A stretch of 64,000 nucleotides of DNA from Tubulanus polymorphus (taxonomy: Eukaryota > Animalia > Nemertea): assembly GCF_964204645.1 (NCBI RefSeq), contig NC_134033.1, forward strand, positions 9,432,655-9,496,654, in the 5' to 3' direction. Position numbers and translations under genes: made by a program. Positions within the stretch are counted from its first letter, which is position 1; each line of letters begins with the position of its first letter. This document shows positions 6,296 through 63,827 of the stretch, in pieces. The notes beneath the pieces were generated by a model. That model was not told where the DNA came from. It was given only the letters and a program-made list of their open reading frames with translations, and searched no databases.

Positions 6296-9200
6296 TGTTT
6301 TCACATGTTTTTCCATAAAATGCATTATTCATTAACTTAAAAAAATCCTTCTCAAAATCAGTTTTAGATTTAGTTCTCTGTGTAGTATTAAAATCTATAT
6401 ATTTTTCTAACCACTTAGATTGATTAAATGAAATATATCTATGTACTTTTTTTAATATCATTCCTTGATTCAAATAAAACTTCAACATTCTATAATGTAC
6501 TACATAATTATATTTATCTTCTTGAGTTACCATTAACTTTTCTGTATGAATATGATTATCAGGTTTAATTCTTTTTTGATAATTTGATAATTCTTCATGT
6601 TTAACAGTTTTATGTTCGGGACAATATGCTAGATTTCTAGATTTGAATTTAATATTTTCGGGGTATTCTAAATCTACAACAAAGAAGTAACCAGTATCTG
6701 AATCATCTGCAATATCTAGAATTCTTTTCTTCCAATCAAATTTATCAATTTGTAAAACTTCAGTTATTTCAAACATCCCATAAGGTTGTGGTTCCATCAT
6801 TGCCCAACCATAAAGGTTATTTGCATCTATATATAATAATTTATATCCAGGATTATCATTTACATTGAAATATCTATCACCTAATACACCTGAAACACCT
6901 CCTCTTATAGATTTTTCAAATAATAGTAATTGATCTATATTTGTTAACAAATCCATTTTTATATTTGTAAATTTTAATCCACAATCCCATGTTAATCCTG
7001 GTGATGAATAACAATGACAAGGATCAATATTTTAGGTTTACATCTCTAAACCTTTCAAATATATCGGTTAATAATAATACATCTGATTTTAAATATAAAT
7101 CTACTAATTGTCCATGATTTTTAATTTCGAAATGATTCCAAATATTCAATGTTCTATTATATACTTCATCTTTAACATATTCATTTTTTAATTCATCATA
7201 GAATTGTTCTTTCAATAATTCAGTTATTTTAAAATCATTATGATTTTTATAGAAAGAATATGGAATTGCTCCTTTATATCTCATTAATTTAAAATCATCA
7301 TAATTAGGGTAATATTCTTTTAATATCTTTAATTCATCATCAACTAAACTTTTTGATAAATTATCTAATGAACTATTTAAAAATCTATATGAATCTATAA
7401 ATCTTAAACAACCAAATTGGAATGAAATATAATTTTCAGATGTTTTAGCTAGTATTTTTAATTTATAAGTTGGTATTTTATCTTTTGATCTATTTGAATT
7501 TAATCTTTCTATTTCATTATTAATTTCTTCTATTTTATAGCATAACTGTTTGATAAATAAATGTGCGTCATACCCCGATAAATTGTGAAATATAATGGGG
7601 ACAAAATTGATTTTCTTTGCTTGCAAATTACAATTCTCATGTGCAGCCCCTCTAAACTTTCCATTCAAATGATCATGGTCTCTTACTTTTTTATCTTTAT
7701 AATTAAATATCTTTTCACAATAATAACATTTATCTGCAAACTCAAATGCTTCTTTATCTTCTTCTGTCATAATTATTTCTTTATTTGTATTCAACTTTTC
7801 ATTAAATCTTATTTCATATTCAATTAATAAGTCACAAAAATGATTAATAACATTTTCATTTCTATAATGATAATATTCACTTTCAATTAGTTCTGGATAA
7901 TCAGATTTTATATATAACCCAAAAGCAGCAGCTGATTGATGAATCTTTTTAATAGTATTTGTTATTGGTGGTTCTTCTGAATAATCATTTTCATTAGAAT
8001 TTAATTTCTTTCTTTTATAATATATATCTTTTCTATCTTTATCTGTTAATTCTTTATTTAATGATTCAAAATCTCCATATATTACAAATGGTACTTTATT
8101 TTTATAATCATATTTTTTGAATTCTAATATTTTATCTTTTTCATTTGGTAAAACTAATTTACAATAATCATGATTATCACATAGTTGTTTATGATTTAAT
8201 AATGCGCCTTCAGTTCTGAATTTATGTAAACATTTTCTACATAGATATATTTTATTATCAAAATCATTTTCTGATTTAAAAAATAAATCGATTTGTTTAA
8301 TCCACATGTAATGATTCTCATAATATAGTATATCTATAACATCATTTGAATCATAATCTTTTGATAGGTATAAAGGTTCTAATGTATAATGTTTAATATT
8401 ATTTCCTTTTGTATTTGGTAATTTGATTAAATCAAATACATTTATCTTTAAATTATTATCTCTTTCTATTTTTGGAATATTTTTAATTCTAACAGGATAC
8501 TTATCTATCTTATAATTATTTTCAAATTGTTTATAATGAGTTAATCTATAAGTATGTTTATTATAATCTTCAACTGGGTGTAAACAACTTATTATAGCCC
8601 ATAGAAAACATTTATCATCTTCATTTTGTACATTTATTACACCATTAGTTTTAAATGGTAGTTTAATATAACTTGTTCCATTTATACTATCATCTTTATA
8701 ATATGATAAATTATTTTCATCAATTGGTTTTGATTTAGTTAACTTATTATATTTTGTGTTATAAACATGTAAAGTTATAAATATTATCTCATCAAATATT
8801 AAACCAGATCCTTCAAAATATTTCTCTTCTATTTTAGTTTTTATTTCATTATAACATTTATTTAATTTATCATCTATATGTTGTTTAGATATAATATGTT
8901 GTGAATGAGAATTTATATTATATATTGGTTTATCTTCAGATTTTATAAACTTTACTTTAACTGATATACTAATTTTTGGATATTCTACGTTTGTAATTAT
9001 TTTTATTATTTCTTTCATATTTTCTAAATGTTTTTTATTTTCTTCTATTGTTTTTGCTTTATGAAATTTAAACTCAATAGCTGCTGGACCAATATCACTG
9101 TTAAATGCTTCGGTTATCTCTATATCTTTTTTATTATCTAATGAATTAATATAATTTCTTACATCTTCCATATATGGTCTTTTATTGTTTAATTTATTTT

Positions 9201-9529
9201 TTATTCTTTTAATTGTCTTCTGTTTCTTATCGTTATCATTATCAAAATAATCTTCACCTAAAATATCATTATTCTTATTTCTAATATGGCTTTTAGATTT
9301 TAAATGTTCTTTATAATATCTTTTATCACTGAATGATTGATTACATGTATCACATTTATATTTTTTCTTTTTCATTCTTTAATTCATCTAATTTAGTTTC
9401 TAATATATCATCTTTATATTCTAGTTTCAATTTATTCTCTAAATGTGTTATAGTTTTATTGTGTCTTGCTTTTTGAGACTTGTCTATATCGATATTACAT
9501 GTTGGGCAGTAGTATTTATTTGCTTCCAT
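6296..9529 (-). pseudogene. polB: Protein-primed DNA polymerase B, frameshifted and 3'-deleted (copy A)
   Basis: Matches copy C pPolB; frameshifts near 9370 and 7025; ends after motif B (KLMNNAFYGK). Confidence 0.92.
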
Positions 9530-11666: not shown

Positions 11667-11744
11667 GTGCTGTTACTCCTGAGAGGGAAGGGGTAACACC
11701 CAGACGGACGCATCCTCACCAACCTATCAAATCTAATCCACCTG

Positions 11745-25005: not shown

Positions 25006-25671
25006 ATGGAACCAGAACAACCACAAACTATCAATATTACAAATAACACTGGTGTTATAAATATATATTACAAGAAATGTTCTAAATGTGAATTAGATAA
25101 ATTAGCTTTAACAGAATTTAGTAAGCGTAAGATTAGCAAAGATGGTTTTCAATATTACTGTAAAACTTGCATTAAACTATATACCAAACAATATCGAGAA
25201 GATAATAGAGAATCTTATAATGATTATATGACAGAATATATGAGAGAAAGATATCAAACAGATCTTAATTTTAGATTGAAACAATGTTTAAGGACTAGAT
25301 TAACACAATTATTCAACAAAGAAACACATTCAGAAACATTAACTAATTTATTGGGTTGTTCAGATAAATTTCTCAAATCATGGATTATATTTCAATTCAA
25401 TGATAAAATGAATATAGATAATTATGGGGATTATTACCACATTGATCACGTGTTACCAATATCTAAATTTAACATGAACGATGAATACAATAAAAAACTT
25501 ATTTGGAATTGGAAAAATTTAAGACCTTTAGAAAAGAAAGAAAATCAAATCAAATCTAATAAAATAGATTTACAGTTATATTTGAATCAACTGGAAAAAG
25601 TAAAAAAATTTATTGAATTATGGAATTCAACACATAATGAACAATACGTTGAGTCTTTAATGAGTGGTTAA
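25006..25671 (+). CDS. HNH endonuclease with N-terminal Cys4 zinc ribbon
   Basis: CSKC...CKTC, YHIDHVLP and NLRPLEKKENQIKSNK. Confidence 0.87.
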   Translation: MEPEQPQTINITNNTGVINIYYKKCSKCELDKLALTEFSKRKISKDGFQYYCKTCIKLYTKQYREDNRESYNDYMTEYMRERYQTDLNFRLKQCLRTRLTQLFNKETHSETLTNLLGCSDKFLKSWIIFQFNDKMNIDNYGDYYHIDHVLPISKFNMNDEYNKKLIWNWKNLRPLEKKENQIKSNKIDLQLYLNQLEKVKKFIELWNSTHNEQYVESLMSG

Positions 25672-27965: not shown

Positions 27966-28569
27966 AGATTTATTTATATTTGAACCACATAATATGTTAG
28001 TTACTGGAGTTACAAATTGTGGTAAAACACACTTCATATTAGATTTGTTAGAAACTATTTATAAGAATCATTTTGATAATATAATATTATTCTGTCCTAC
28101 ATATGAAATGAATGAAACGTATAATAGAGATATAGTTAAGATAAAAAAGTTTATTATATTAGATCCTAAAACAGTGAAAGATAATTTAGATAATTGTATA
28201 AAAATTGCAATAGATATTTATAAAGGATCTAATACATTATTTATTATTGATGATTGCGCAAATTTACATGATTCTAAAATTAGAGAAAGTGAGTTATGTT
28301 ATTTAGCTTTCTCTGGTAGACATTTTGGGATAACAACTTGGGTTTTAAATCAGAAATATAATTCAATTGTGAAAGATTTTAGAGAGAATATAAGATTTCT
28401 AGTTTTATTTTATAACAAAGATAGAAAATCTATGCAACAATCATTAGAAGAAAATCAAATTATACCTCCTGAATTACATGATGAATATATGAATAAATTA
28501 AAGAATAATAAAGGTTCAAAATTATTAATGAGATTACAATTTCCATATGAATATAAATTTATAAAATAA
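27958..28569 (+). CDS. A32/FtsK-HerA-like genome packaging ATPase
   Basis: Walker A GVTNCGKT, Walker B FIIDD, GRH arginine-finger motif. Confidence 0.93.
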   Translation: MNKDLFIFEPHNMLVTGVTNCGKTHFILDLLETIYKNHFDNIILFCPTYEMNETYNRDIVKIKKFIILDPKTVKDNLDNCIKIAIDIYKGSNTLFIIDDCANLHDSKIRESELCYLAFSGRHFGITTWVLNQKYNSIVKDFRENIRFLVLFYNKDRKSMQQSLEENQIIPPELHDEYMNKLKNNKGSKLLMRLQFPYEYKFIK

Positions 28570-30141: not shown

Positions 30142-31389
30142 TTAATACATAACACTATCTAATTGTGAATTTATAATATTTAATTGCGCGTCAGATAAAA
30201 TATAAATGTGCATTTTAAAATTTTTTATTCCTTTATTCTTTTTCATGAATAATTGTATTCCATCTTTAGTGTTTTGTAGTTTTTTTCCAGAACCATGTAA
30301 TGAATTATCCTCTGTTGTTCTAAAATCTAACCATAATGCATATTTATTACCGGTATAATAATCAATTTGATTAATGTTACAATTTTCAAATGATTTTATT
30401 TTTTCATTCATAAAATGTTTTTTAATTTCTACCCATTGATCTATCATTCTCATTCCTTGACAAAATATTTTATTTGCTATTCCTTCGATAGTTATTTCTA
30501 CTTTTGTTATTTCAGGATTATAATAATTATCAACATTTATTGCACCATTAGTATACGTTCCAATTGTAAAAAATATTAATATACCTTTAATAGATCTTCT
30601 AGGAAAGTTAATATTCTCATTTATTATTTCATCATTTGCATTAATAGTTACAGTTTTAAATTTATCAATATAATCATATAATAATGAAAACCCTTGATTG
30701 TATTGAGTTTGAATTATACTTGAAATATTTTCATCAGTTACTGTATCATATTCTAAACATATATTCGATAATTTATAACTCATATCTTTATTAACGCTAG
30801 ATAATACAATTTCATTTACAGGAGCAAATGTTATCTCAAATATAATATCTTCTTGAATTGCGTATTTATATAAAGGTGCATTATTATTTATCAATTCAAA
30901 ATCTAATGGAATTTTATATTTGCTTCCATATAAACTTTTTATCAATTTATCTACATCATTAGTTAATATTGCGCTATTAGCTTCTGATCTTAATTTATTT
31001 TGGTTTTCTGATTGAATTCCTTGAAATATCATATTATTTCTATTTTCTTTAGTTAACCATAAATCTTTATAATGCATAAATAAATTATAATCATCTAATG
31101 AGAAAACTGTTTCTGGACCAATCTTTATTGTTAACTTTTTAATCAAATATCTTCCAACATTATCAACGACATAATTATTATTATTACCGATTACTTTTAT
31201 ATCAACGGATAAATAAATACTGTTTGGAACATAAAAAGTATTTTGTGTTAATCTAGGAATTCTAACATATAAAGTTTCATCGGGATTAATATTTGAAGGG
31301 TTATGAGTAATTATATGATGTGATCTTTCTGCTTTAATAGCATTAGATATTCTAGAAATCTTTATAGGACTTATATAACTCCCACTCAT
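30142..31389 (-). CDS. Major capsid protein (double jelly-roll, Polinton type)
   Basis: 415 aa; same motifs as 19180..20427. Confidence 0.85.
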   Translation of the reverse strand: MSGSYISPIKISRISNAIKAERSHHIITHNPSNINPDETLYVRIPRLTQNTFYVPNSIYLSVDIKVIGNNNNYVVDNVGRYLIKKLTIKIGPETVFSLDDYNLFMHYKDLWLTKENRNNMIFQGIQSENQNKLRSEANSAILTNDVDKLIKSLYGSKYKIPLDFELINNNAPLYKYAIQEDIIFEITFAPVNEIVLSSVNKDMSYKLSNICLEYDTVTDENISSIIQTQYNQGFSLLYDYIDKFKTVTINANDEIINENINFPRRSIKGILIFFTIGTYTNGAINVDNYYNPEITKVEITIEGIANKIFCQGMRMIDQWVEIKKHFMNEKIKSFENCNINQIDYYTGNKYALWLDFRTTEDNSLHGSGKKLQNTKDGIQLFMKKNKGIKNFKMHIYILSDAQLNIINSQLDSVMY

Positions 31390-34235: not shown

Positions 34236-34670
34236 TTAATAATTAACTAATTCTTTTAATAATTTATCTTGTTCTTCAACTGTTATATGGCCATTTAAAC
34301 TTATTATATAATCTAGTGTGTTCTTTAATTTATTAATTTCTTTTATATTAGTTTTAATTTTTTCTTTATTACTTTTTATATTTAATTTTGAACTTATACC
34401 AGTTAAAACACTTGAACTTAATCCTAATACACCAATTGATATAGCTAAAGGTGTTAATGGACTGAATATTGCTAGAAATGTTATTACAGAACTAATTGTA
34501 ACCGAACCACTAATAATCAAATAATATATAATTTTACTTTTTAAATATTTTTTCTTTTTTATCTTTAGGTCACTTTCAAATTCTAATATTTGTTTTTCTA
34601 AATATATTTTTAATTTAGTTTTATTTATATCATGAGGAATAATATCAATACTATCAACTTTATCTTCCAT
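34236..34670 (-). CDS. 144-aa two-TM protein
   Basis: Conserved across copies. Confidence 0.8.
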   Translation of the reverse strand: MEDKVDSIDIIPHDINKTKLKIYLEKQILEFESDLKIKKKKYLKSKIIYYLIISGSVTISSVITFLAIFSPLTPLAISIGVLGLSSSVLTGISSKLNIKSNKEKIKTNIKEINKLKNTLDYIISLNGHITVEEQDKLLKELVNY

Positions 34671-44969: not shown

Positions 44970-47900
44970 TTAACACGTTAGAATTCTTTTCATTATCTCG
45001 TTCTCTTTTGTTTCTTCTCTTTTAAATTTTAAGTATTCATCTAAATTGCAACCATATGCTACTGTATGAATTCCATCATCTAAAATATATCTTTTATCAT
45101 CAAATGGGTTTAGACTTATCTTTTCAATTTCTTCAATAAACATTTCATGATCTTCAGATCTTAAACATCTCATCTTATGTTTTCTTAACTTCTTCATTGA
45201 ATATACAATTGATGTAATCTTTGAAATGAATATTCTTTTCTACTACACTTTTGGTTATTCCTTTTAACTTTTTAGATTCATGTTCTTTAGTTTTATATGA
45301 ATACATTTTAGATCTAATACCAACGAATTCAATCATTTCTTCACCACCTAATTCATCTTTGAATTTACCGGGAACTTTTTTATTATCATTGCTAAACAAT
45401 TCATGATCTTTAGGATAATTACTGAAATCGAAATGATGTTTTAATGTTTTTAAATCATCAGTTATGTTATCAGTTTTTATCTTTAATATGTAACTGTCAG
45501 TATCAAAATATAATATTTCTATATGCTTTTCTCCAAAAAGTGGTTGTAATACATTATAATAGAATTCATACATTAGTAATTTTGATAATTCTAAAACTGA
45601 TGCTCCAACATAGATTGGTTTATTAAATTTCATAGAAGTTCTTCTCATCTTAACTGCGGCTAAATTTTCATCAAATATTCTGTTACCAATGAAATTAGGA
45701 TATGTTGTAAATGTCTAATTCTTTTACCATTACTAACTAACTCAATATCATTTCTATTTCTAATATTTTCACAAGTCTTACCATAGAATGCATTATTCAT
45801 TAACTTGAAGAAATTTTTCTCGAAATCAGTTTTAGCTTCAGTTCTCTGTTTGGTGTTAAAATCTATATATTTTTCTAACCACTTAGATTGACTAAATGAA
45901 ATATATCTATGTACTTTTTTAGAATCATTCCTTGATTCAAATAAAACTTTAACATTCTATAATGTACTACATAATTATATTTATCTTCTTGAGTTACCAT
46001 TAACTTTTCTGTATGATTATGATTTTCGGGTTTAATTCTTTTTTGATAATTTGATAATTCTTCATGTGTTACAGTTTTATGTTCGGGACAGAATGCTAGA
46101 TTTCTAGATTTAAATTTAATATGTTCAGGATATTCTAAATCTACAACAAAGAAGTAACCAGTATCTGAATCATCTGCAATATCTAGAATTCTTTTCTTCC
46201 AATCAAATTTATCATTATTTTCATTCTGTAAAACTTCACTTATTTCAAATACTCCATAAGGTTGTGGTTCCATCATTGCCCAACCATATAAATTATTTGC
46301 ATCTATATATAATAACTTATATCCAGGGTTATCATTTACATTGAAATATCTATCACATAATACACCTGAAACTCCTCCTGTTATAGATTTTTCAAATAAT
46401 AGTAATTGATCTATATTTGTTAACAAATCCATTTTTATATCTGTAAATTTTAATCCACAATCCCATGTTAATCCTGGACTTGAATAACAATGACAAGGAT
46501 CAATGTTAAAATATTTTAGGTTTACATCTCTAAACCTTTCGAATATATCGGTTAATAATAATACATCTGATTTTAAATATATATCTACTAATTGCCCATG
46601 ATTTTCTATTTTGAAATGATTCCAAATATTCAATGTTCTATTATATACTTCATCTTTAACATATTCATTTTTTAATTCATCATAAAATTGTTCTTTTAAT
46701 AATTCAGTTATATTGAAATCATTATGTGATTTATAAAATGAATATGGAATTGCTCCTTTATATCTCATTAATTGAAAATCATCATTATTTGGGTAATATT
46801 CTTTTAATATCTTTAATTCATCATCAACTAATGACTTTGATAAGTTATCTAATGAACTATTTAAAAATCTATATGAATCTATAAATCTTAGGCAACCTAA
46901 TTGGAATGATATATAATTCTCAGATGTTTTAGCTAACATTCTAAATTTATAAGTTGGTATTTTATCTTTTGATCTATTTGAATTTAATCTTTCTATTTCA
47001 TTATTGATTTCTTCTATTTTATGGCATAACTGTTTGATGAATAAATGTGCATCATATCCTGATAGATTATGAAATATTACTGGTACAAAGTTAATTTTCT
47101 TAGCTTGTAAGTTACAATTCTCATGCGCAGCGCCTCTAAACTTTCCGTTCAAATGATCATGGTCTCTTACTTTTTTATCTTTAAAATTAAATATCTTTTC
47201 ACAATAATAACATTTATCTGCAAACTCAAATGCTTCTTTATCTTCTTCTGTCATTATAATTTCTATATTTGTATTCAATAATTTACTAAATCTTATTTTA
47301 TATTCAATTAATAAGTCACAAAAATGATTGATAACATTTTCATTTCTATAATGATATTCACTTTTAATTAGTTCTGGATAATCAGATTTAATATATAACC
47401 CGAAAGCAGCAGCTGATTGATGAATCTTTTTAATAGTATTTGTTTTTGGTGGTTCTTCTGAAAAATCATTTTCATTAGAGTTTAATTTCTTTCTTTAATA
47501 ATATATTTCTTATCTATCTTGATCAGTTAATTCTTTATTCAATGATTCAAAATCTCCATATATAACAAATGGTACTTTATTTTTGTAATCATATTTTTTG
47601 AATTCTAATATTTTATCTTTTTCATTTGGTAAAACTAATTTACAATAATCATGATTTTCACATAATTGTTTATGATTTAATAATGTACTTTCATTACTGA
47701 ATCTATGTAAACATTTTCTACATAGATATATATTATGGTGATCATTTTCTGATTTAAAAAATAAATCGATTTGTTTAATCCACATATAATGATTCTCATA
47801 ATATAGTATATCTATAACATCATTTGAATCATAATCTTTTGATAGATATAAAGGTTCTAATGTATAATGTTTTATATTGTTACCTTTTGTATTTGGTAAT

Positions 47901-48801
47901 TTGATTAAATCAAATACATTTATTCTTAAATTATTATCTCTTTCTATCTTTGGGATGTTTTTAATTCTAACAGGATACTTATCTATCTTATAATTATTTT
48001 CAAATGGTTTATAATTCATTATATTTTGTGTTATAAACATGTAAAGTCATAAATATTATTTCATCAAATATTAAACCAGACCCTTCAAAATATTTCTCTT
48101 CTTTTTTAGTTTTTACTTAATTATAACATTTATCTAATTTATCATCTATATGTTGTTTTGAAATAATATGTTGTGAATGAGAATTTATATTAATATATTG
48201 GTTTATCTTCAGATTTTATGAATTTAACTTTTGATGAAATACTTATTTTAGGATATTCAACATCATTATTATTTTTATTATTTCTTTCATATTTTCTAAA
48301 TGTTTTTTATTTTCGTCTAATGTTTTTCCTTTATGAAATTTAAACTCGATAGCTGCCGGGCCAATATCACTTTTAAATGCTTCGGTTATCTCTATATCTT
48401 TTTTATTATCCAATAAATTAATATATTTTCTTACATCTTCCATGTATGGTCTTTTATTGTTTAATTTATTTTTTATGCTTTTAATTGTCTTCTGTTTCTT
48501 ATCATTATCTTTATCAAAATAATCTTCACCTAAAATATCATTATTCATATTTCTAATATGACTTTTAGATTTTAAATGTTCATTATAATATCTTTTATCA
48601 CTGAATGATTGATTACATGTATCACATTCGTATGTTTCTTTCTCATTCTTTAATTCATCTAATTTAGTTTCTAATATATCATCTTCATATTCTAATTTCA
48701 ATTTATTCTCTTAAATGTGTTTTAGTTTTATTGTGTCTTGCTTTTTGGGATTTATCTATATTGATATTACATGTTGGACAGTAGTACTTATTTGCTTCCA
48801 T
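44970..48801 (-). pseudogene. polB: pPolB with multiple frameshifts and an internal deletion (copy D); intein-free allele
   Basis: Fragments align with copy C; contiguous YFDTDS. Confidence 0.92.
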
Positions 48802-49822: not shown

Positions 49823-52800
49823 ATGGGGGAGAATGAACACCAACTAGAAAACAATAATATCAATAAAAATCAATATTATTGTCAATATTGTAAAAAATAC
49901 ATCGATACATCTAATAAAACACGACATGAAAAAACTGCAAATCATATAAAAAATGTTATAGATTTTGAAACTCCAGAAAATTCCAATGAAAGAAAAGAAC
50001 GATTAGAAAATATGAATGTGGATGAAATAAAATGTGAAGTTTGTAATGAATTTATAGTAAAAAGGAATTATAGTAGACATCTCGAATCACAAAAACATTA
50101 TAAAAATTTAAATAAAAATGTTTTTGGATTAGAATATTTTGATAATAAACCTCAAAAAGTAAAAGAATCAACTTCAAAAACTAAATCCATTTCAAATAAA
50201 CCTTACATGGAAAATGTTAGAAATTATATTGATTCACTAGAAATAAAAGATACAATTGAAATCTTAGAAACATTACATAGTAAAATTGGTCCTGCAGCTA
50301 TTATATTTAGATTCTTTAAAGGTACAACAATAGAAGATTATAGTAAATTTAATGAAATAATAGAAAAAATACTAGATTTGATAACAGATGTTGAATATCC
50401 AAAAATTAGTATCTCTGGGAAAGTAAGTTTTATGAAGTCAGAAGAAAAAATGAATTATAATATTCAAACACTCTCTGAAGAAATAATTTCAAAAACACAA
50501 ATAAAAGAGAAGTTAGAAAAAATATTAAATGAATTTAAACGTCATATTGAAGAAAGATATTTTGAGGGTTCTGGTTTAACATTGAATGAAATTATATATT
50601 TAGATTTAAATGTTTATAATACAAAAAGAAATAAAACATCAAAAAGTAATAAAATGTTTAAAAATAATTCAAACTTTATAATAGAAAAAGATATGAAAGC
50701 ATCAAGTTATATTAAATTACCATTTTTATCAAAAGCAGTAATAAATATTCAAAATGAAGATAATAAATGTTTTCTATGGTCAATTATTAGTTGCTTACAT
50801 CCATCACAGGAAAATGCTTGTAGAATAACAGATTATCGGAAATATGAAACATTATATAAAATTGATCAATATCCAGTAACTATAAAAATGATACCCAAAA
50901 TAGAAAAAATTAATAATTTAAAAATAAATGTATTCGAATTAATGCAATTACCAAAGACAAAAGGTGAAAATATTAAAGATTATACATTGGAAGCTTTATA
51001 TTTAACAGAATATTATGATGATGAAAATGCTATAGATTTGTTATATTACAAAAAAGATGAAAATGAACATTATATGTGGTTAAAACAAATTGATTTATTC
51101 TTTAGAACAGAAAGTGATTTTAACAACCATAAAAATTTATCTATGTAGAAAATGTTTATCTAAATTTAGAACTGAGAATGCGTTACTAAAACATAAAGAA
51201 TTATGTGATAATAAAGATTTTTGTAAATTAATAATGCCAACAGAAAAAGATTATAAATTGAAATTTACTAATCATAAATTTAAAAATATTGTTCCATTTG
51301 TAATTTATGGGGATTTTGAATCGTTGAATAAAGAATTAACTGATCAAGATAGAAAAGAAATATATAACAAAAAGCAATTATTAAAATCAATGGATAAAGG
51401 AAATGAATTAAATGAAGACGCAACACAAGACCCACCAATTATAAATACAATTAAAAAAGTTCATCAAAGAGCTGCTGCTAATGGAATTTACATCAAATCA
51501 AATTATCCCGAATTATATGAAAGTCAATATATTTCTTTTAGAGGTGAAAATGTAGTTAATGATTTTTGTGATAAAATGATTGAATTAGAAAGTGATTTTA
51601 CAAAATTATTAAACAAAAATAAAAGAATAGTTATGACAAAAGAAGATGAAATTGATTTTAATTATGCAACTCATTGTTGTTATTGTGAAAAACGTTTTTA
51701 TTCATTTGATAAAAAAGTTAGAGATCATGATCATTTAAATTCAAAATATCGTGGAGCTGCTCATGAAGATTGCAATTTACAAGCTAAGAAAGTTAATTTC
51801 GTACCAATATTATTTCACAATTTATCGGGTTATGATACCCATCTATTTATAAAACAATTATCAAAGAAATTGGGTACAATTAATCAAGAAATAGAAGAAT
51901 ATAATGCTATGAATGGTGTAAATGTAAGAAAATATGATTTTAAACTATTAGCTAAAACATCTGAAAATTATATTTCATTACAATTTGGTTGCATTAGATT
52001 TTTAGATTCTTATAGATTTCTAGCAAGTTCATTAGATAATTTATCAAAAAGTTTAGTTGATAATGATTTTGTTATAACTCGATATTATTATCCAAATGAC
52101 CAAGATTTTAAATTATTGAGATATAAAGGCGCAATTCCTTATTCATTTTATAAAACACACAATGATTTTAATGTAACAGAATTATTAAAAGATCAATTTT
52201 ATGATCAATTAAAAGAGGAGTATGTGAAAGATGAAGTGTTTAATAGAACATTAAATATTTGGAACCATTTTAAGATGAAAAATCATGGTGAATTAGTTGA
52301 TTTATATTTAAAATCAGATGTTATGATATTGGCTGACATATTTGAAAAATTTAGAGAAGTTAATTTAAATCATTTTAATGTTGATCCTTGTTATTGTTAT
52401 TCAAGTCCTGGTTTAACCTGGCAATGTGGTTTAAAATATACAAATGTAGAATTAGATTTATTAAAAGAACCAGATATGGTTTTATTATTTGAAAAATCAA
52501 TTAGAGGTGGAATTAGTGGTGTTATGGGAGATAGATATTTTAAAGCAAATGATGAATATAAATTATTATATATTGACGCCAATAATTTATATGGTTGGGC
52601 AATGATGCAACCTCAACCATAATAAAATTTTATATTAACAGAAGTTGAAAATGATGATAAAACTGATTGGGAAAGCGCAATTGCGAGTTTAAAAGATGAA
52701 GCACCAATTGGTTATTTCTTTGTAGTTGATTTAGAATATCCTGAAAAAATAAAGTTTATAACAAGAAACTTACCTTATTGCCAAGAACATTTAACTGTAG

Positions 52801-54890
52801 ATGATAGTTATTTAAGTGAATACCAGAAGAAAATAAAACCGAAAGATCATGTTTTTACAGAAAAATTAATACTTACTCAAAATAATAAATACAATTATAT
52901 TGTTCATTATAGAATGTTAAAATTTTATCTAAAACAAGGAATGAAATTAAAGAAAGTACATAGATATATTGAATTTAATCAATCGAAGTGGTTAGAAAAA
53001 TATATAGATTTCAATACTCAACAGAGAACCATATCAAAAACAGATTTTGAAAAAGATTTCTTTAAATTAATGAATAATAGTTTTTATGGTAAAACATGTG
53101 AAAATATTAGAAATAGAAATGATATTGAATTAGTAAATAATTCTGAAAGATTAAGACATTTACAATCAAGTCCTAGACATTTAGGAAATAAAAGGTTTGA
53201 AGATTATTTAACCGCGGTAAAATTAAAAAGAACGTCCATGAAATTTAATAAACCAATATTTATAGGTTCAACCGTTTTAGAAATTTCAAAGCTATTGATG
53301 TATGAATTCTATTATAATGTTTTACAACCACTTTTTGGGGAAAAACATATAGAAATATTATATTTTGATTCTGTAACGGCTGACACCCCAATATTATTAA
53401 AATGTAATAATAAAATATTGGTAAGAAGAATTTCAGAAATAATTCCAAAACAAAATGAATGTTATATTTCATATGGAGAAAAAGAATTAATACAAATAAA
53501 TGGTTTAATGGATGTTTGGACAAGAAATGGATGGAAAAAATTAAAGAATATTATTAGACATAAAACAAATAAGAAAATCTATAGAGTTAGAACTAAATTA
53601 GGATTTGTTGATATTACTGAAGACCATAGTTTGATTAAACAAAATGGTAATGAAATAAAACCAACTGATATAAAAATTGGAGATGAATTATTACATAAAA
53701 GATTTTTCCCAAGAATGAATCATATGTCATTTGATGAAATAATTAATAATATTTATAATATAGAACCCGAAACATTGGAAGAAAAAGAATATTTTATCAA
53801 AGGATTTTTCATGGGTGATGGTTCAGCAGGTGTGTATAAATATGTTTGGGGTAATAAATATTGTTGGTATTTATGCAATCAAGACTTAAAATTATTAGAA
53901 AGAATTAAGAAATTCTGTGAAGAAGTTTATTCACATAAAACATTTAGAATCATGGACCATATGAAATCATCCGCGGTTTATAGAATATTTGTAAATAATC
54001 CTAAAGATTTTGCTACAAAATATAATGATGAATTCTATATTCATGCAATAGTGAAAAGTAATACTTCAACAAAAGAAAAGATAGTTCCAGATTATGTATT
54101 GAATGCAAAAAATAATTTAAGAAAGTGGTTCTTCATTGGATTCTATGCCGCAGATGGTTCAAAAAGGTTCCAAAACCGCAAAACAATATCCTTTGCTCAA
54201 AAAGGAAAAGTTGCTATATCAGGATTGAATATATTATGCAGTTCATTAGGATTTAATATGAATATAGAATTAATTAAATCTAAACCAAATTGTTTTAATT
54301 TAAGGCATGTAGCAAAAGAATTAACAGAAGAAGTTAAAGATTTATTTGAAATATATAACCCAACTGACTATGTTTATGATTTATCAACAGATGATGGAAC
54401 ATTCAATTCTGGGTTCCCATTAATCCAAAAAAATACTGACAGTTACATACTAAAAATCAAGACAAATGATATAACAAAAGACTTAAAAACATTAAAACAT
54501 TATTTTGATTTTAGCAATTACCCCAAAGATCATGAATTGTTTAGCAATGATAATAAAAAGATTCCTGGTAAATTTAAAGATGAATTAGGAGGTGATGAAA
54601 TGATTGAATTTGTTGGGATAAGAAGTAAAATGTATAGTTACAGAACAAAAGATCATGAAGCTAAAAAGTTAAAAGGAATAACAAAACATGTGGTTGATAA
54701 ACATATAGAATTTCAAGATTATATAAAGTGTTTATATAAATCAATTGTAATGAAACACAAAATGAATTGTTTAAGATCAGAAGATCATGAGATGTACATT
54801 AATGAAGTTGAAAAAACTAGTTTAAATCCATTTGATGATAAAAGGCATATTTTAGATGATGGTATAAAAACATTACCTTATGGCCATTAA
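49823..54890 (+). pseudogene. polB: Divergent pPolB containing an intein; frameshift near 51130 and stop at 52620
   Basis: All exonuclease and polymerase motifs present across ORFs 49823..51148, 51090..52622 and 52914..54890. Confidence 0.93.
53370..54434 (+). mobile_element. Intein (355 aa) with LAGLIDADG homing endonuclease, inserted in pol motif C (YFD|TDS)
   Basis: Block A SVTADTPILL; block B DITEDHSL; LAGLIDADG FIKGFFMGDG and FFIGFYAADG; block F VYDLST; ends QKN with +1 Thr; absent from copies C and D. Confidence 0.95.
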
Positions 54891-56203
54891 AACATAAAAT
54901 CAATATCATCATACTCGAAATCACTATTAGCTTCTTCATTTTCATTTAATTGTTCAGGTTCTTCTTCCATTCCATTTTTCTCATTTAAATAAATTTCTAT
55001 CTTGTTCCACATTTCATCTCGCTCTCTTTGTTTCTTTTTATTTGTTAATTCATCAAATGGAATTATAATATCTAGGTTTAAATAATTTACAATCTTATTT
55101 AAAAAGAATTCATAATTTATTGAATCTGTTATTCTATTTTCCAAATGATACATTAATATTTGTTTAAATATTTTTTTTATATTTTCCATATCTTCTTCTG
55201 TTAATTTAGGTTTTTCATAATAATCGTTAAATAATAAATATAAATACATTTTCTTTTGTTTTGTGTTAAATGTTGGTGGAATAATTGTTTTTATAATATC
55301 TTTTTTAGTTATTTCACCATTTTCATTTTCTATTATTTTCATTTTTTCAAGCCATTGCATATATTCTGGTGTATGATCTTCTATAGAAAATATTTTAACA
55401 ATTTCATCTAGATAATTTAATTTTGGTTCTATGAGAAAATCTCTAGTTTTTTCTTCACCCCATAAATTTTTTTGCCATCCACAATCAACACAAAATAACA
55501 CAGTACCTTCTTGCCTTAAGGTCGCATAAATACATTGTGGGCATTTTTGTTTATAATTTACTGGTAATAGATCTTCATTAAGCTCTTGGTATTTTCTTAC
55601 GTTTTCTTTATGTTTTATTGTTCTATTATGTAGATTTGAATTACTTGTTGTAATAATCAATTTACAATATTTACAATAATATGTTTTTCTTGTTAATTCA
55701 TTATATTGTTTTTCTAACTTTTCAACTGTTTCTTCATTATCTGGTAACGTTTTCTCATATTTTATTTTTTCTAATAAATTATTTTTTCTTTCATTAAATT
55801 CAGTTTCAAATTTATTAGAAATTTTATCTATATGTACTTTACGAAATTGATGATTCTCCCAATCTTCTATATTTTCAGGCTTATATTTTATTCGACAAGG
55901 CTCACAGAAATAATCTTTTATATTATCCTTATCATAGAATAAGAAAGGTCTTTTCCAAATAATTTCAGGTTCAACTTCAACAGAATTATTATTACTTTCG
56001 TTACTGTCAACATTAACTATTAAGTTATTATTTTTACACTTCTCTAAATGTTTTTAGAAATAATTTCTAGAGAATGTTTTATTACAATTTGGACAGTTTA
56101 TTTTAGGGGGTTTATAATTTTCATCATGTTTTTTCATATGTCGAGCCATATTACTTTTTCTTAGAAGTTCACCACAAATTTCACATGCTATCTTCTCATT
56201 CAT
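54887..56203 (-). CDS. Four C2H2-type zinc fingers fused to a poxvirus A2L/VLTF-3-like late transcription factor domain (~438 codons, one in-frame TAA at 56054-56056)
   Basis: ATG at 56203 (TAATAAATG) is in frame with ORF 54887..55660; CPQC-x13-CVDC zinc ribbon; SINYEFFLNKI...DEMWNKI. Confidence 0.75.
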
Positions 56204-56271
56204 TTATTAAGGAAAAATTTTATTAAAAATAATTTTTAGTGATGAGCGGTAATTTTTTTATGTTATAAATA

Positions 56272-57036
56272 ATGGTAGAATTAAAAGAATACAGAATATT
56301 TGTTGATTCTAGAAAACTTACAAATTATAAATCACATAATTTATTAGTACAATTAGATAGAGAATTCAAGAATTGTGTTGATTTAAAATTAGTAAATATA
56401 AGTTTATGTAACTCATTTTATAATATAACAGCTAAAAGTCTTGAACATTTATTTTTTTCAATCAAGAGTAAGGATAAATAGAATTATCTATTTTTAAAAC
56501 CAGTATTATATAATTTAAATACATTAGCGCAGGAAATTAATAAAAAAGCTCGGATGAAATTAGGTAGTGATGCTGAATTTAACATTAGATTTTTGAAAAG
56601 TGATAATTCTAATAAAATGAAGATAAGGTTAGCTCATAATGAAAAATATCAATTTTCAGTTAAAAAACCTATAGCTAAACTATTAGGAATTACACCAGAT
56701 AAATATTATTCAAATGTTGATACTACACCAAATATAATACCTTTTACACATTTTTATATTTATTGCAATTTAATCGATCCTACAAAAACATTCGAAGCAA
56801 CTAAAGATATAACTTGTAATTCTGGTTTACTAAACATTTTACCATTGAAGAATGTTAAAGAATTTGGAACACAAATAAATTATAATTTAGCTGAATGTGA
56901 TTTCAAACCTTGTATTCCTCAATTTAATAATTTTAAATTAGAAATAAGAAATCATAATGGATACTTAATTGATTTGAATAACTTTCCTGTAATTTATGAA
57001 TTAGTTATAAGAGTAATTTTTTCACTATATAAATGA
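56272..57036 (+). pseudogene. Minor capsid (penton) with an in-frame stop at 56479 (copy E)
   Basis: ORFs 56272..56481 and 56554..57036 share a frame. Confidence 0.82.
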
Positions 57037-57389
57037 ATATAACTGTTGGACCGAGTATATGTTTTGGATTTGATTTTAAACGTGAGAAAGAAATGAAATT
57101 TAACATTAATGATGTAATAACACATATCAAAAATACTGCATTTTCTAATGAAACAACATTTGAGTATGAAACAACAATAGATAAAGAAACTTTAAATGTA
57201 GAAAAGATTACTAATTTAATTAGAGAATCTTTAAGATTTTATGAATTAGATGAAGATTTTATAATCGATGATATTAAAAAAATAATAATTGAAATATATA
57301 CAAATGAAACTAGTAATAAAATAAATGTTGAATTAATCATAAATAAGTTAACTAAATATTTTGATGATAGTAATTTTTTTGATAAATAA
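57033..57389 (+). CDS. 118-aa hypothetical protein (copy E)
   Basis: Near-identical to 35359..35715. Confidence 0.75.
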   Translation: MNITVGPSICFGFDFKREKEMKFNINDVITHIKNTAFSNETTFEYETTIDKETLNVEKITNLIRESLRFYELDEDFIIDDIKKIIIEIYTNETSNKINVELIINKLTKYFDDSNFFDK

Positions 57390-57610
57390 ATGAGTGATAA
57401 TAAGTGGATAATAACTGGATTATATAATGGCGCATTACTATCAGTTGGAACTGTTGGTTATTCAATGGTATTAAAAAAGTATTCAAAATGGGAAGTGTTA
57501 ATGTTGATAGATTTGATATCAATGATATTCTAAAATTAACATTAGCAGTTACTTTATCTAATTTAACTATTGATTATTTAGAAAAACAAAAATATATTCC
57601 TCCCATATAA
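57390..57610 (+). pseudogene. 73-aa hydrophobic protein with a 1-nt frameshift in an A-run (copy E)
   Basis: ATGAGTGATAATAAGTGG start; aligns with 35137..35358. Confidence 0.75.
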
Positions 57611-57634
57611 ATGCATAATTTTTTTGCTAAATAA

Positions 57635-58057
57635 ATGGCTTCTGCAATTATAACTATTATAGGATCGGCAATTGTTAACGCTTTAGCATTTACTGGTGGT
57701 GGTTATTTATTTAAACATATTGATAAAAATAGTTCATTAGGAGAACAAAGAAGACATAACTTAGCGTTAGAGAAATACAATAAAGCTGCAGAAGAATATA
57801 GAGAAAAGAGGCAAAACTATATGGATTACATCAATAAAGAATTATATGATCAGAAGATTTCACATAGAGATTTTCAATCAGTTGATGATGCAATGAGTTT
57901 ATATAACGCGGTAACCAATAAAGAAAAATTACATCTATACAAACCTAACTTATCAGATTATTATACCCCAAGTAAAGAACAACAGAAATATGAAATAATA
58001 TGGATTTTAGGTGGAACTGTTATTGTTATATTTGTTGCTTATAAGTTTACTAATTAG
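57635..58057 (+). CDS. 140-aa membrane-associated protein (copy E)
   Basis: Near-identical to copy C. Confidence 0.8.
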   Translation: MASAIITIIGSAIVNALAFTGGGYLFKHIDKNSSLGEQRRHNLALEKYNKAAEEYREKRQNYMDYINKELYDQKISHRDFQSVDDAMSLYNAVTNKEKLHLYKPNLSDYYTPSKEQQKYEIIWILGGTVIVIFVAYKFTN

Positions 58058-58075
58058 TAATTTTTTGTTAAATAA

Positions 58076-58510
58076 ATGGAAGATAAAGTTGATAGTATTG
58101 ATATTATTCCTCATGATATAAATAAAACTAAATTAAAAACATATTTAGAAAAACAAATATTAGAATTTGAAAGTGACTTAAAGATAAAAAAGAAAAAATA
58201 TTTAAAAAGTAAAATTATATATTATTTGATTATAAGTGGTTCGGTTACAATTAGTTCTGTAATAACATTTCTAGCAATATTCAGCCCATTAACACCTTTA
58301 GCTATATCAATTGGTGTATTAGGATTATCATCAAGTGTTTTAACTGGTATAAGTTCAAAATTAAATATAAAAAGTAATAAAGAAAAAATAAAATCTAATA
58401 TAAAAGAAATTAATAAATTAAAGAACACACTAGATTATATAATAAGTTTAAATGGTCATATAACAGTTGAAGAACAAGATAAATTATTAAAAGAATTAAT
58501 AAATTATTAA
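58076..58510 (+). CDS. 144-aa two-TM protein (copy E)
   Basis: Near-identical to copy C. Confidence 0.8.
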   Translation: MEDKVDSIDIIPHDINKTKLKTYLEKQILEFESDLKIKKKKYLKSKIIYYLIISGSVTISSVITFLAIFSPLTPLAISIGVLGLSSSVLTGISSKLNIKSNKEKIKSNIKEINKLKNTLDYIISLNGHITVEEQDKLLKELINY

Positions 58511-58526
58511 TTTTTTAATTATATAA

Positions 58527-59915
58527 ATGGTAGATAGTTTTCCAAAAGCTTTCCAATATAATAAATCAATTAAATATAATATTCCAACAATAGATTTTAA
58601 TAAAGATATTACATATAGAAATGAAGTTTTAGATTCATTAATTGATTTACATATTTATGTTACTGAAACTAATAATTTTAATGCAAAGATGGAAAATATA
58701 TTTCATGTATATTTAATTAATTTTAAAAAATTGAAAGATGAAAAACAATGGTTATTAAAATCTAATATGAAGTATTGGCAGAACCAATTAAATTTTGCTG
58801 TTTATTGTGCAACAACAGGATGTGGAATTAGTTGGAATGATCATTTGAATAATTCTAAATATAAATTAATTCAAAGTTTATTTAGATTTCATACATACTT
58901 TCAAATAAGAATAATATTAAATGAATTAGAGTGCGCTTTACCAGGATCTAGGTATTTCAAAGAATTAGATAATAATATTAATTTATCAAAGTTTTATAAG
59001 ATTTGCAATGAATTTAATATAGATATAAATAATTCTGATTTTAGAACAAAAATTGGAACAATAAGATCACTTCCTTGCCCTAGAAAGATTGCAGAATATT
59101 GTGCACTTCCCATACCATCTAATAGTTTTTATAATATCTATAATAATAAATTAGGTTATGGTAAAATAGAAACTAAGGATTTAGAAACATTAAATTTCAA
59201 TAAATTGCCGAAATTTTATGATCATTTAAAACAAGAAAACAATAATGGTTGGGTATACTTTATTTTAGAAAATAGTGAAGGTTTTACTAAATCAGGTATA
59301 GAAAGAATAAATCAATCTATTAGAACTTATTTGATATGTATTTTAGGTGCGCAAGTTGAAACAAGATCACCGATAATTGGAAATTTGAATACATCATTCG
59401 ATACACAAAAACAATTTAAAGTTTTATTTGAAGATTCCATACATAATGATAAAAATAGATCTATTCCAGAAAACATTATAAGATATCAAAATTATTTAGA
59501 TAAATCTCATGTAAGACTTAATTATTGTATAGGCCCTAATCTATTAATTATTTCTAATGATTTAGTATTAAAGATGGGAAATATAATTGGTTATAATAAT
59601 CTAATTAAAACTGCAACAATAAATAATTCATTTGGGTTAAATGATATAAATAAAAAGATTATCACTGCTCCAAAATTAATGGAAGGTGAAAAAAATAAAA
59701 AACACATTCAATCAACAGAAACTAAAACTAAGAATATAAAATTGGATAATGATTCTAAAATAAAAGATTACAATACATCAGAAAATATAAAAACTGATAA
59801 AATTCAACATGATATAATTAAAACTGATAATGATAATAAATCACATGAAAATACTAAATTAGCTATAACTTGTATAGGAATTGTAATCGGAGGAATATTA
59901 TATTTTAAATTTTAA
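58527..59915 (+). CDS. 462-aa TM-anchored putative virion protein (copy E, A-type allele)
   Basis: Near-identical to 3025..4413. Confidence 0.82.
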   Translation: MVDSFPKAFQYNKSIKYNIPTIDFNKDITYRNEVLDSLIDLHIYVTETNNFNAKMENIFHVYLINFKKLKDEKQWLLKSNMKYWQNQLNFAVYCATTGCGISWNDHLNNSKYKLIQSLFRFHTYFQIRIILNELECALPGSRYFKELDNNINLSKFYKICNEFNIDINNSDFRTKIGTIRSLPCPRKIAEYCALPIPSNSFYNIYNNKLGYGKIETKDLETLNFNKLPKFYDHLKQENNNGWVYFILENSEGFTKSGIERINQSIRTYLICILGAQVETRSPIIGNLNTSFDTQKQFKVLFEDSIHNDKNRSIPENIIRYQNYLDKSHVRLNYCIGPNLLIISNDLVLKMGNIIGYNNLIKTATINNSFGLNDINKKIITAPKLMEGEKNKKHIQSTETKTKNIKLDNDSKIKDYNTSENIKTDKIQHDIIKTDNDNKSHENTKLAITCIGIVIGGILYFKF

Positions 59916-59931
59916 TTTTTTTATTATGTAA

Positions 59932-61377
59932 ATGGATGTAGAAGGTGGAGAAGATATTCCATTGGATGACATGGGAAATAATAATGAAGGATATATTGAT
60001 GATGAACCACAAACCGATTTTAATAAAACTAATATTGATAATGATGATGAATCAGCATATAATTCTAATTTAACTACACCCCAATTTATTGACAAAGCAC
60101 GTTCAAAGATAAGTATTGAAAATGAAGTACCAGAAATAACAGAAAAAGAATACAATTATAATGAAATTATTCATGAATTTAAACCAATATTAAAAAAATC
60201 TGGTTTCAATATAACAGATAAAGATATGGATAAATTAGCAAAAGATTTGAAATATTTAAATGGTGATTATTATTGGAAATTGAAAGGCGACTATTATTTT
60301 AAGATTTCAAATCTTAAAAGTAGCAGTAATGATAAAATAATAACACAATCAACTTCTAATTTATTAGAACAATCTAGAATTAAGAAAATCAATAATGATG
60401 TTATAACTGATGTTACAAAAAAAGAAAGAATTGTTAATTTAAAAGAATTTAAACAAAGAAATGCTAATTTTTTTAAGATAATTAATGCAAATTTAAGACA
60501 AAAAAAAATTCCTAAAGAAGTTATTAATTCCAAAACTAGTAAACCTAATTCAAGAGAAGTTCAAACTGAAAAACTTTTACCAAATGGATTACTTGATGCA
60601 ACAAATCAACAATTAGAAGATTTAGATATATTTTCTGATAAAGCAATAAGAGAAATTGTTAGTATAAGACTTGCATCTGAAAAAATTGCATATAATAAAA
60701 GTATAAGAGATATTAAAATTAGAACTTTAGAAAAAGAATTAACTGATAAAAATAAAGAAATAGAACAATTAAAGTCTGATTTAGATCATCAAGTAATTGA
60801 TGAAATAGAATATAAACAAAAAGAATTACGTTTAGAAAAAGAAATAGATGATTTAAAATATAACAAAGAATTACAAAAAGAAGAAAGAGATACATTGTTA
60901 AAATCATATGATTATAATATTAATAGATTAAAAGTTATTTTTAAAGATTTGTTGATTAAACCAAATTCTGAAATATCATTAAAAGACAGGATGAAGTTAT
61001 TATTTAAATTAGAAGGAATAACAATTCTTTCAATTCTAACAGCTGTAACTATGTTATTTACAACAATTGGTTTAGCAATATCAAATGCTTTGAAATCTAC
61101 TCCCACTCCCAATAAACCAGATAAACCTCCAGGTAATAATTCTATACAAGATAAAGTTAAGGATGGTTTAAAGAAATTAGCAAAATATTTATGGGAACTA
61201 TCAAAGAAATCTGCTGCAGCTTTACCAGGAGTTATTGCATCAATTGTTGGTTTTATATTGAAATCTGCAGGAAACATTATTAACTTTGCTGCTGAACATA
61301 TTATTTTATTTTTAATTACAGTTGTAAGTGCTATTATTTTTGGTTTAGTAAATATGATATCAAAAAATATCAAGTAA
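59932..61377 (+). CDS. 481-aa coiled-coil/TM protein (copy E)
   Basis: Homologue of 31435..32901. Confidence 0.82.
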   Translation: MDVEGGEDIPLDDMGNNNEGYIDDEPQTDFNKTNIDNDDESAYNSNLTTPQFIDKARSKISIENEVPEITEKEYNYNEIIHEFKPILKKSGFNITDKDMDKLAKDLKYLNGDYYWKLKGDYYFKISNLKSSSNDKIITQSTSNLLEQSRIKKINNDVITDVTKKERIVNLKEFKQRNANFFKIINANLRQKKIPKEVINSKTSKPNSREVQTEKLLPNGLLDATNQQLEDLDIFSDKAIREIVSIRLASEKIAYNKSIRDIKIRTLEKELTDKNKEIEQLKSDLDHQVIDEIEYKQKELRLEKEIDDLKYNKELQKEERDTLLKSYDYNINRLKVIFKDLLIKPNSEISLKDRMKLLFKLEGITILSILTAVTMLFTTIGLAISNALKSTPTPNKPDKPPGNNSIQDKVKDGLKKLAKYLWELSKKSAAALPGVIASIVGFILKSAGNIINFAAEHIILFLITVVSAIIFGLVNMISKNIK

Positions 61378-61421
61378 ACCATGATATCAAAAAATAAATA
61401 ATTAATTTTTTTGTTAAATAA

Positions 61422-62669
61422 ATGAGTGGGAGTTATATAAGTCCGTCGAAGAATCATAGAATATCTAATGCTATTAAAGCAGAAAGATCACATCATATAA
61501 TTACTCATAATCCTTCAAATATTAATCCCGATGAAACTTTATATGTTAGAATTCCTAGATTAACACAAAATACTTTTTATGTTCCAAATAGTATTTATTT
61601 ATCAGCCGATATAAAAGTAACTGGTCATGATAATAATTATGTTGTCGATAATGTTGGAAGATATTTGATTAAAAAGTTAACAATAAAGATTGGTTCAGAA
61701 ACAGTTTTCTCATTAGATGATTATAATTTATTTATGTATTATAAAGATTTATGGTTAACTAAAGAAAATAGAAATAATATGATATTTCAAGGTATTCAAT
61801 CGGAAAACCATAATAAATTAAGATCTGAAGCCAATAACGCAGTAGTAAATAATAGCGTAGATAATTTGATTAAAAAGATTTATGGAAGTAAATATAAAAT
61901 TCCATTAGACTTTGAATTGATAAATAATAATGCACCTTTATATAAATACGCAATTTAAGAAGATATTATATTTGAGATAACATTTGCTCCTGTAAATGAA
62001 ATTGTATTATCTAGCGTTGTTAAAGATATGGGTTATAAATTATCGAATATATGTTTAGAATATAACACAGTAACTAATGAAAATATTGCTAGCACAATTC
62101 AAACTCAATACAATCAAGGATTTTCATTATTATATGATTATATTGATAAATTTAAAACTGTAACTATTAATGCAAATGATGAAATAATTAATGAGAATAT
62201 TAACTTTCCTAGAAGATCTATTAAAGGTATATTAATATTTTTTACCATTGCAACATATTCTAATGGCGCAATAAATGTTGATAATTATTATAATCCTGAA
62301 ATAACAAAAGTAGAAATAACTATCGAAATAATAGCAAATAAAATATTTTGCCAAGGAATGAGAATGATAGACCAATGGCCAGAAATTAGAAAACATTTTA
62401 TGAATGAAAAAGTAAAATCATCTGAAAATTGTAATATTAATCAAATTGATTATTATACCGGTAATAAATATGCATTATGGTTAGATTTTAGAACAACAGA
62501 GGATAATTCATTACATGGTTCTGGGAAAAAACTACAGAACACTAAAGATGGAATACAATTATTCATGAAAAAGAAAAAAGGAAGCTTAAATTTCAAAATG
62601 CACATTTATATTATATCTGACGCACAATTAAATATTGTAAATTCACAATTAGATAGTATTCAATATTAG
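61422..62669 (+). pseudogene. Major capsid protein with an in-frame stop at 61956 (copy E)
   Basis: CAA-to-TAA change at YAI*EDI; otherwise collinear with 30142..31389. Confidence 0.85.
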
Positions 62670-62699
62670 AAATATAAAGTTAAAATTAAGGATATATAA

Positions 62700-63827
62700 A
62701 TGAGTGGTAAAAAAACTCCTAATACTAAAGAACAATATTTAAGAAATTTATATTACAACCCTGAGAGTTCGGTTGCTTATTCTTCTACTAAAAATATATG
62801 GCGTAAAGTAAAACAAGATAAATTAGATAAGATAATCCCACAAAATTTAGTTAAATATAAAGATATAAATGAATTTATGTTAGAACAACCAACGTATACA
62901 ACACATAAAAAAATTGTTAGAAAATATAAAACTCGTAAAACTATGGTAAGTTATGTAGATCAACAGTGGCAAGGAGATTTAATTGATATGAAAAATCTTA
63001 AAAAAGATAATGATGATTATTGGTGGATATTGAATATAATTGATATTTTTAGTCGTTATGTATGGAGCTTCCCACTTTATAGAAAAGATGCTGCACAAAC
63101 ATCACATGTTTTAAGAAAATTTCTTTCAGGTGGTAAACTAAAACCAGAAAAAATTCAATTTGATAATGGAAAAGAATTTGATAATTCATTAGTTCATGGA
63201 CTTTTAGATTTTCATAATATTAAATATTTTTCAACAAAATCGGATAAAAAAGCAGCAGTTGTTGAACGATTTAATAGAACATTAAGAACAAGAATGTGGA
63301 AATATTTTACAGCAAATAATACTTTTAAATGGATTGATGTTTTACCAAAATTGATAGAAGGATATAATAATTCTTATCATTCTTCTATTGGAATGAAACA
63401 TATTGATGCTAGAAAACCTGAAAATGCTGAAATTGTTTGGAATAATTTATATGGAGCATTTCTTGTAGATGATTTTGGTGAACCTAAATTTAAAGTTGGT
63501 CAAAATGTTAGAATTTCTAAGTATAAAAAGATATTTGACAAAGGATACGATCGAAATTTTACTAGGGAAATATATAAAATAAAAAAGGTAATAACAACAA
63601 AACCATATGTCTATAGATTAGAAGATTTAGATGGTGAAGAAGTTGATGGATATTTTTACGAAGAAGAATTAAGTTTAACTACTGAAAATCTAGAACAAGA
63701 ATATAAAATTGAAAAAGTACTAAAAACAAAAACTGTTAAAAGAAAAAAATATTCTTTAGTAAAATGGGTTGGATGGCCAGATAAATTCAATGAATAGATA
63801 TTATCAAGTAAAATTAAAAATATATAA
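62700..63827 (+). CDS. Divergent rve integrase with chromo-like domain; premature TAG ~10 codons before the natural end
   Basis: WQGDL, QFDNGKEF and VVERFNRTLR; SLVKWVGWPDKFNE*ILSSKIK. Confidence 0.9.

Follow-up and report, generated by a model that had tools for sequence, protein, structure and literature searches.

The window (the whole 64,000-nucleotide stretch of DNA analyzed here) is made up of five or more related Polinton copies in an array, in which genes for pPolB (a DNA polymerase of family B that is protein-primed), rve integrase, A32 ATPase, and capsid are recognizable (Table 1). The Polinton gene set is represented by pPolB, a retroviral-like integrase, an A32 ATPase (seen in element C), and a double jelly-roll capsid; element E extends past the window edge. 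Terminal inverted repeats start with AG (AGTAAT... termini at 11745, 41176, 49410, and other positions). No adenain-like protease was matched by profile in the 48 ORFs scanned, no matched pair of 6-bp target-site duplications was identified in the rearranged array, and Rfam returned no match in the window.

Table 1. Features of the window (positions counted from its first nucleotide)
Feature	Positions	Strand	Basis or remark
Copy A pPolB	6297..9529	-	stops short of motif C; no site
Element C rve-chromo integrase	26877-27965		core gene
Element C A32 ATPase	27958-28569		core gene
Element C double jelly-roll-like capsid	30142-31389		core gene
Copy C pPolB, uninterrupted, 1344 aa	36875..40909	-	empty site 37406/37405, reads YFDTDSY
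Copy D pPolB, frameshifted	44973..48801	-	empty site 45502/45501, reads YFDTDSY
Copy E host pPolB, intein-bearing	49823..54890	+	broken upstream of intein
Possible conversion tract, 25 codons upstream of intein	53295..53369	+	protein identical to C; 3 silent differences vs 8.3 expected, P=0.010
Intein, 355 aa, Ser1 to Lys354-Asn355, then +1 Thr	53370..54434	+	profiles, model pLDDT 90, fold matches
N-terminal Hint part, ~residues 1-112	53370..53705	+	TIGR01445 over cut-off; H86 in 120/120 aligned relatives
Block B TEDH	53616-53627	+	within N-terminal Hint part
LAGLIDADG endonuclease domain, ~residues 134-313, including K237	53769..54308	+	Pfam LAGLIDADG_3; I-DmoI and PI-PkoII fold matches
LAGLIDADG motif 1, D150	53793-53819	+	D150 in 111/120 relatives
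LAGLIDADG motif 2, D262	54129-54158	+	D262 in 116/120 relatives; K237 in 120/120
C-terminal Hint part: block F Asp337, clade signature FNxGF-PL (one-residue deletion)	54321..54434	+	alignment
VLTF3-like gene adjoining intein-bearing pPolB	54887..55360	-	Pfam Pox_VLTF3 over cut-off
Element E capsid gene, two pieces	61422-62669		
Element E rve integrase	62700..63797	+	profile match

Several other features of the array deserve mention. Element E is mosaic, with capsid-side genes (56267-62683) that are ~88%-94% identical to those of neighboring copies versus ~75% for the polB side (49823-55360), and its VLTF3-like gene replaces a small polB-adjacent gene of element C. The terminal ORF of each element (2054-2854, 12361-13029, 25006-25671) has a Cys-pair N-terminus and a HIDH...NL motif without any Pfam match; we take these ORFs to resemble a free-standing HNH endonuclease. 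Each element also carries a small two-helix membrane gene (4430-4864, 34236-34670, 58076-58510) with a weak SLATT-domain match. Between two Polinton ends lies the remnant of a Gypsy LTR retrotransposon (10100-11700; an LTR end and a gag with a zinc knuckle), for which Mollusca is the commonest label among the few labeled members of gag look-alike clusters. Its tRNA-Leu-type primer site (10612-10623) matches a flatworm tRNA-Leu-primed element in the accessible text of PMC4558846. These features lend indirect support to an animal host, which was assumed at the outset and is considered likely here; an Atlas search with the capsid pointed to none.

The pPolB of copy E is split by a 1065-nt insert of 355 codons, in frame and without a stop, flanked by ILYFD upstream and TDSY downstream, and placed within motif C (FD/TDS, the slash marking the insertion point). 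The initial annotation had proposed an intein here from Ser1, TxxH, two LAGLIDADG motifs, VYDLST, a terminal Asn, and a +1 Thr, and each could be located in the translation (Ser1, T83-E-D-H86, FIKGFFMGD150, FFIGFYAAD262G, VYD337LST, K354-N355, and the +1 Thr). Profile searches agree for both the Hint and the endonuclease parts: TIGR01445 (intein_Nterm) scored 29.7 bits against a cut-off of 24.5 and Pfam LAGLIDADG_3 29.9 against 22.5, whereas Pfam Intein_splicing matched at 5.9e-7 with a score (29.9) below its cut-off of 35.8. The predicted structure (pLDDT 90) matches endonuclease-bearing inteins along its full length; the best PDB matches are endonuclease inteins, with PI-PkoII at Z 28.7 (rmsd 4.3, 311 aligned), and mini-inteins match at Z 19 and rmsd 2.1-2.2, consistent with a Hint fold. 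The endonuclease domain has the two helices with acidic residues (D150, D262) and the conserved K237 of LAGLIDADG (DOD) enzymes. Residues S1, H86, K237, G257, D337, and N355 are invariant in the 120 closest nonredundant relatives, and all are present in the window, as are D150 and D262. Judged from sequence and model, the insert is a Hint plus LAGLIDADG intein with conserved catalytic residues, apparently intact and predicted to splice.

The hallmarks of class 1 inteins are found here (an in-frame insertion missing from homologs, Ser or Cys at position 1, TxxH, the block F Asp, a terminal Asn, and Ser, Thr, or Cys at +1), except for the penultimate His, which is replaced by Lys354. This His is usual in class 1 inteins but is treated here as non-essential. 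The Lys, correctly pointed out at the outset, precedes the terminal Asn in 87 of 201 nonredundant inteins (the commonest state; His, 84) and in 174 of 337 extracted inteins before redundancy removal, and Lys-bearing relatives interrupt essential PolB motifs. Because it is common in the clade, Lys354 was rejected as a sign of decay. Base composition was likewise rejected as evidence that the intein arrived recently from a foreign source (intein GC3 0.16 vs 0.11-0.17 in the flanks), and the comparison is uninformative because viral relatives are equally AT-rich. Intein blocks were defined as in the available text of PMC7765530.

Among known systems, archaeal PI-PkoII, PI-PfuI, and TliVMA and yeast PI-SceI share the Hint and two-motif LAGLIDADG architecture, but the window intein is only ~20% identical to them, is smaller, and has Lys in place of His before the Asn. 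The PolB motif-C inteins of Nucleocytoviricota (phycodnavirus, mimivirus, HaV01) and that of Chloropicon primus Pol delta are alike in the D/TDS site, Ser1/Asn/+1 Thr, fold, and size (30%-41% identity), which supports the original description of motif C as a classic PolB intein site with kin in giant viruses. The window intein differs from these in belonging to a clade of its own and in having as host a protein-primed PolB of an integrated multicopy element.

The polymerases of copies C and D are uninterrupted at this site, as first reported. Compared with E, the flanks of the empty site show one mismatch from -30 to +15 in C and are identical from -24 to +15 in D; because they match so nearly, both are plausible homing targets. 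The window copy itself, initially considered able to home into these alleles, has one frameshift and in-frame stops upstream of the intein; with its gene so broken, production of the endonuclease is unlikely. Within its multicopy family, this copy is probably dead. The copy E pPolB also has an HNH-like insert (Pfam Endonuclease_7).

Raw reads of another sample (~12% of run X6) bear on how the intein occurs in the species. The intein start is joined to pPolB both in contigs and in these reads, and most of the reads differ from copy E at its breaks, so the breaks look private. Such breaks might hint at an assembly chimera or a contaminating viral contig, an explanation that is refuted by the joint seen in the other sample and opposed by the same insertion in independent pPolBs; we regard its probability as negligible. 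Read depth is 200-235 over the first two-thirds of the intein (flanks, 210-285) and 90-140 over the last third, where alleles may therefore be diverged or decayed; at the empty site it is ~325. In one contig set, the counts (141 vs 4 at a unique junction) point to tens of copies of the intein, with the proviso that depth is not equal to copy number. A joint between the intein end and a C-type downstream flank was absent from the six X6 loose ends listed of a table with 42 further rows, and none of the 15 joints listed (of 55) skips the whole intein. In a few reads and in two contigs, ~350 bases within the intein (54077-54428) are missing, pointing to a deleted allele in the species.

The top five of 113 longer homologs are pPolBs with an insertion at the same site. 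The closest relatives (45%-64% identity) all lie at that site in other Polinton pPolBs, the best match (P0001) being 64% identical across the intein and 61% across the exteins, whereas viral relatives reach 30%-41%. Fragments up to 73% identical came from a near-length search, and a further intein-bearing pPolB locus (L081) from a metagenome scan. Overall, 431 intein host proteins comprised 355 RNA-primed PolB-like, 34 pPolB-like, 10 topoisomerase II, and 32 unclassified sequences. PolB inteins occupy the same site in hundreds of viral loci, many with a GVMAG label, which we take to denote giant-virus genome bins. Only two of the best 120 of 4758 pPolB relatives carry the intein and 118 are empty, a count biased downward by the use of an empty query. 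No relative was found in a GTDB scan, IMG/VR scans with P0006 and the copy C polymerase gave no match, and intein motifs were seen in none of 85 further cluster members.

Some relatives fall outside this picture. P0102, also a pPolB, has at motif C an intein of another lineage, which groups with an archaeal-type intein; it was left out of the Polinton intein clade, and its separate lineage makes it likely that protein-primed polymerases were invaded at least twice. In P0031, P0041, P0051, and P0057, the same intein family interrupts topoisomerase II at DQD/TDG, a site resembling the PolB motif, likely by a non-allelic jump. P0308 has a related intein at MD/TD, ending in HN, in a protein without a polymerase domain.

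In trees of 46-79 of the 201 nonredundant inteins (non-mixture model), a single clade unites the six full-length Polinton inteins (SH 98-99) when distant outgroups are omitted, with weak support (75/67) when they are included (53 rows). All six have a one-residue deletion close to the C-terminus, found also in 23 of 184 RNA-primed PolB inteins but in no outgroup. The Hint tree unites Polinton inteins with the deletion-bearing viral subclade (SH 94); the endonuclease tree is looser, with P0007 nearest to the Polinton inteins, and an AU test did not reject the union (p 0.159). The subclade includes giant-virus bins, and one of its polymerases is nearest to the Phaeocystis pouchetii virus PolB (59% over 309 columns); three others look T4-like. 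Because the deletion is common to Polinton inteins and this one giant-virus/phage-like PolB subclade, a viral link is likely but old. From the sequences, we consider one old exchange with that subclade likely, more probably from virus to Polinton, and not a recent capture.

The initial annotation had instead proposed acquisition from a co-infecting large DNA virus. The intein's kinship with giant viruses stands (the deletion, the Hint tree), but its nearest relatives are other Polintons in a clade of their own. A recent direct capture by this Polinton family could draw on the hundreds of viral PolB inteins at the site, on the deletion shared with a subclade in which the polymerase sampled has Phaeocystis pouchetii virus as its nearest match, and on the VLTF3-like neighbor gene; given that no viral relative exceeds 41% identity where another Polinton reaches 64%, and that the Polinton inteins group together, it is very improbable. 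The opposite direction, in which Polintons were the older reservoir and gave the intein to large DNA viruses, has in its favor the tree rooted on archaeal and phage-like inteins, where the Polinton inteins diverge ahead of all 40 rows from viruses, Pol delta, and topoisomerase (99/91). However, the outgroup branches are long, the derived deletion is shared with a single viral subclade (consistent with a position nested in the viral diversity), and viral inteins are far more numerous, so we consider this unlikely, although less so than recent capture. It bears on origin only, and is compatible with continuing homing.

For P0004, intein and extein histories are not congruent. The P0004 intein is 50% identical to that of the window and sister to window plus P0001 (97/84), yet its exteins have no BLAST match to copy C under E 0.05. 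Presence is patchy: nine intein rows need eight changes on a 42-row extein tree, at least six of them forced, where the intein rows were chosen by us and the changes cannot tell gain from loss. Two 90% clusters (136 and 121 members) hold both allele types among the 15 members listed for each, and one near-identical pair (P0283 vs P0280, 743/746 residues) differs in allele type. In the P0002 family, seven intein and four empty alleles (from 15 listed members, four of them without a usable site) are ~98% identical over 1191 residues, and 11 of 11 fixed differences fall between -7 and +43. Immediately downstream, the intein alleles agree at 95% with another intein-bearing family but at 60% with the empty alleles of their own. 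In the window, the 20 codons directly upstream of the intein show two silent differences from C versus 7.1 expected (P=0.0075, the lowest of the windows tested), a signal that is one-sided (downstream P=0.67).

These patterns make persistence by homing between Polinton families likely, so far as sequences can tell. The intein might instead be a vertical relic, present in an ancestral Polinton and still splicing, with homing lost and repeated losses since. Such a history would suit the single intein clade, the similar intein (64%) and extein (61%) identities of the window and P0001, and the failure to see homing into C among the reads listed. It is opposed by the P0004 incongruence, by 98%-99% identical alleles with and without the intein, by allele differences confined to the insertion site, and by the retention of catalytic residues in 6/6 Polinton inteins, and we judge it improbable. 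The endonuclease domain is about as conserved as the Hint domain among Polinton inteins (49.7% vs 53.5%).

Empty alleles are often altered in the clade richest in the intein. There, 60 of 79 deviate from TDS (CDS, TDA, TDG, or similar) compared with 1 of 39 elsewhere, counts drawn from a single clade, perhaps from a single host lineage, with likely pseudogenes among them. The alterations require nine changes on the tree, at least three of them forced. At the empty site in the species, 89 of 295 reads have other letters in the codons just downstream, which in one contig amount to silent recoding. Both patterns are leads to possible resistance, the altered motif-C alleles being likely escape variants.

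We therefore favor, as the probable account, a Polinton-wide intein lineage in pPolB motif C that derives from a single old entry from, or alongside, a large-DNA-virus PolB subclade and persists by homing. By analogy with class 1 chemistry, splicing would begin with an acyl shift at Ser1 assisted by T83 and H86, proceed by attack of the +1 Thr, and end with cyclization of Asn355 without a penultimate His, restoring the catalytic DTD. The excised protein would then make a cut at motif C of polB alleles that lack the intein. Repair templated by an intein-bearing copy within that nucleus would copy the intein with short flanks, the targets being supplied by the many Polinton copies per genome. 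A bolder proposal, to which we give slightly less than even credence, is that the intein is actively homing on Polintons in an animal nuclear genome, crosses deeply divergent polymerase lineages, and has driven repeated escape changes in an otherwise almost invariant catalytic motif, DTDS (DCDS, DTDA, DTDG, silent recoding), amounting to a homing arms race in a multicopy endogenous virus family.

Nuclease domains in Polinton polymerases have been described before. The available text of Jeong 2023 (PMC10748475) reports HNH and VSR inserts in pPolB2, the HNH type also in oomycetes, without the word intein; as described there, they lack Hint and lie outside motif C, whereas the window insert contains a full splicing domain and lies in the catalytic motif. 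Krupovic 2024 (PMC11071308, accessible portion) reads nuclease inserts in pPolB as traces of intein invasions. The nuclear inteins of Anaeramoeba and those of endogenous giant-virus PolBs (Gallot-Lavallee 2023, PMC10710043) are also virus-linked, reside in nuclear DNA, and move between paralogs, but their hosts are protist or algal, and Polintons are absent from the main text. In the accessible portions, PMC12220804, PMC3671162, and PMC13768754 name inteins in general terms only, and PMC8502044 and 10.64898/2026.06.19.733378 contain no occurrence of them. The searchable literature yielded no account of a Polinton polymerase with a Hint-bearing intein, although supplements, Repbase, InBase, or subscription papers could hold an earlier note. 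The sequence is that of an apparently intact homing intein whose host element, a Polinton, is of a new kind, and the signs of homing are indirect but agree with one another.

If the host is an animal, the statement that metazoan genomes lack inteins (Green 2018, PMC5784728, in its available text, which also lists iridovirus PolB inteins) would be overturned. At the sequence level, the intein is evidence that Polintons and large DNA viruses have exchanged genetic material, and it bears on whether Polintons replicate alongside such viruses. That an insert dependent on splicing has persisted in motif C implies that the polymerases are still expressed and needed. A single genome has alleles with the intein, empty alleles, and altered alleles, which makes the cycle of invasion, resistance, and loss of homing elements directly testable.
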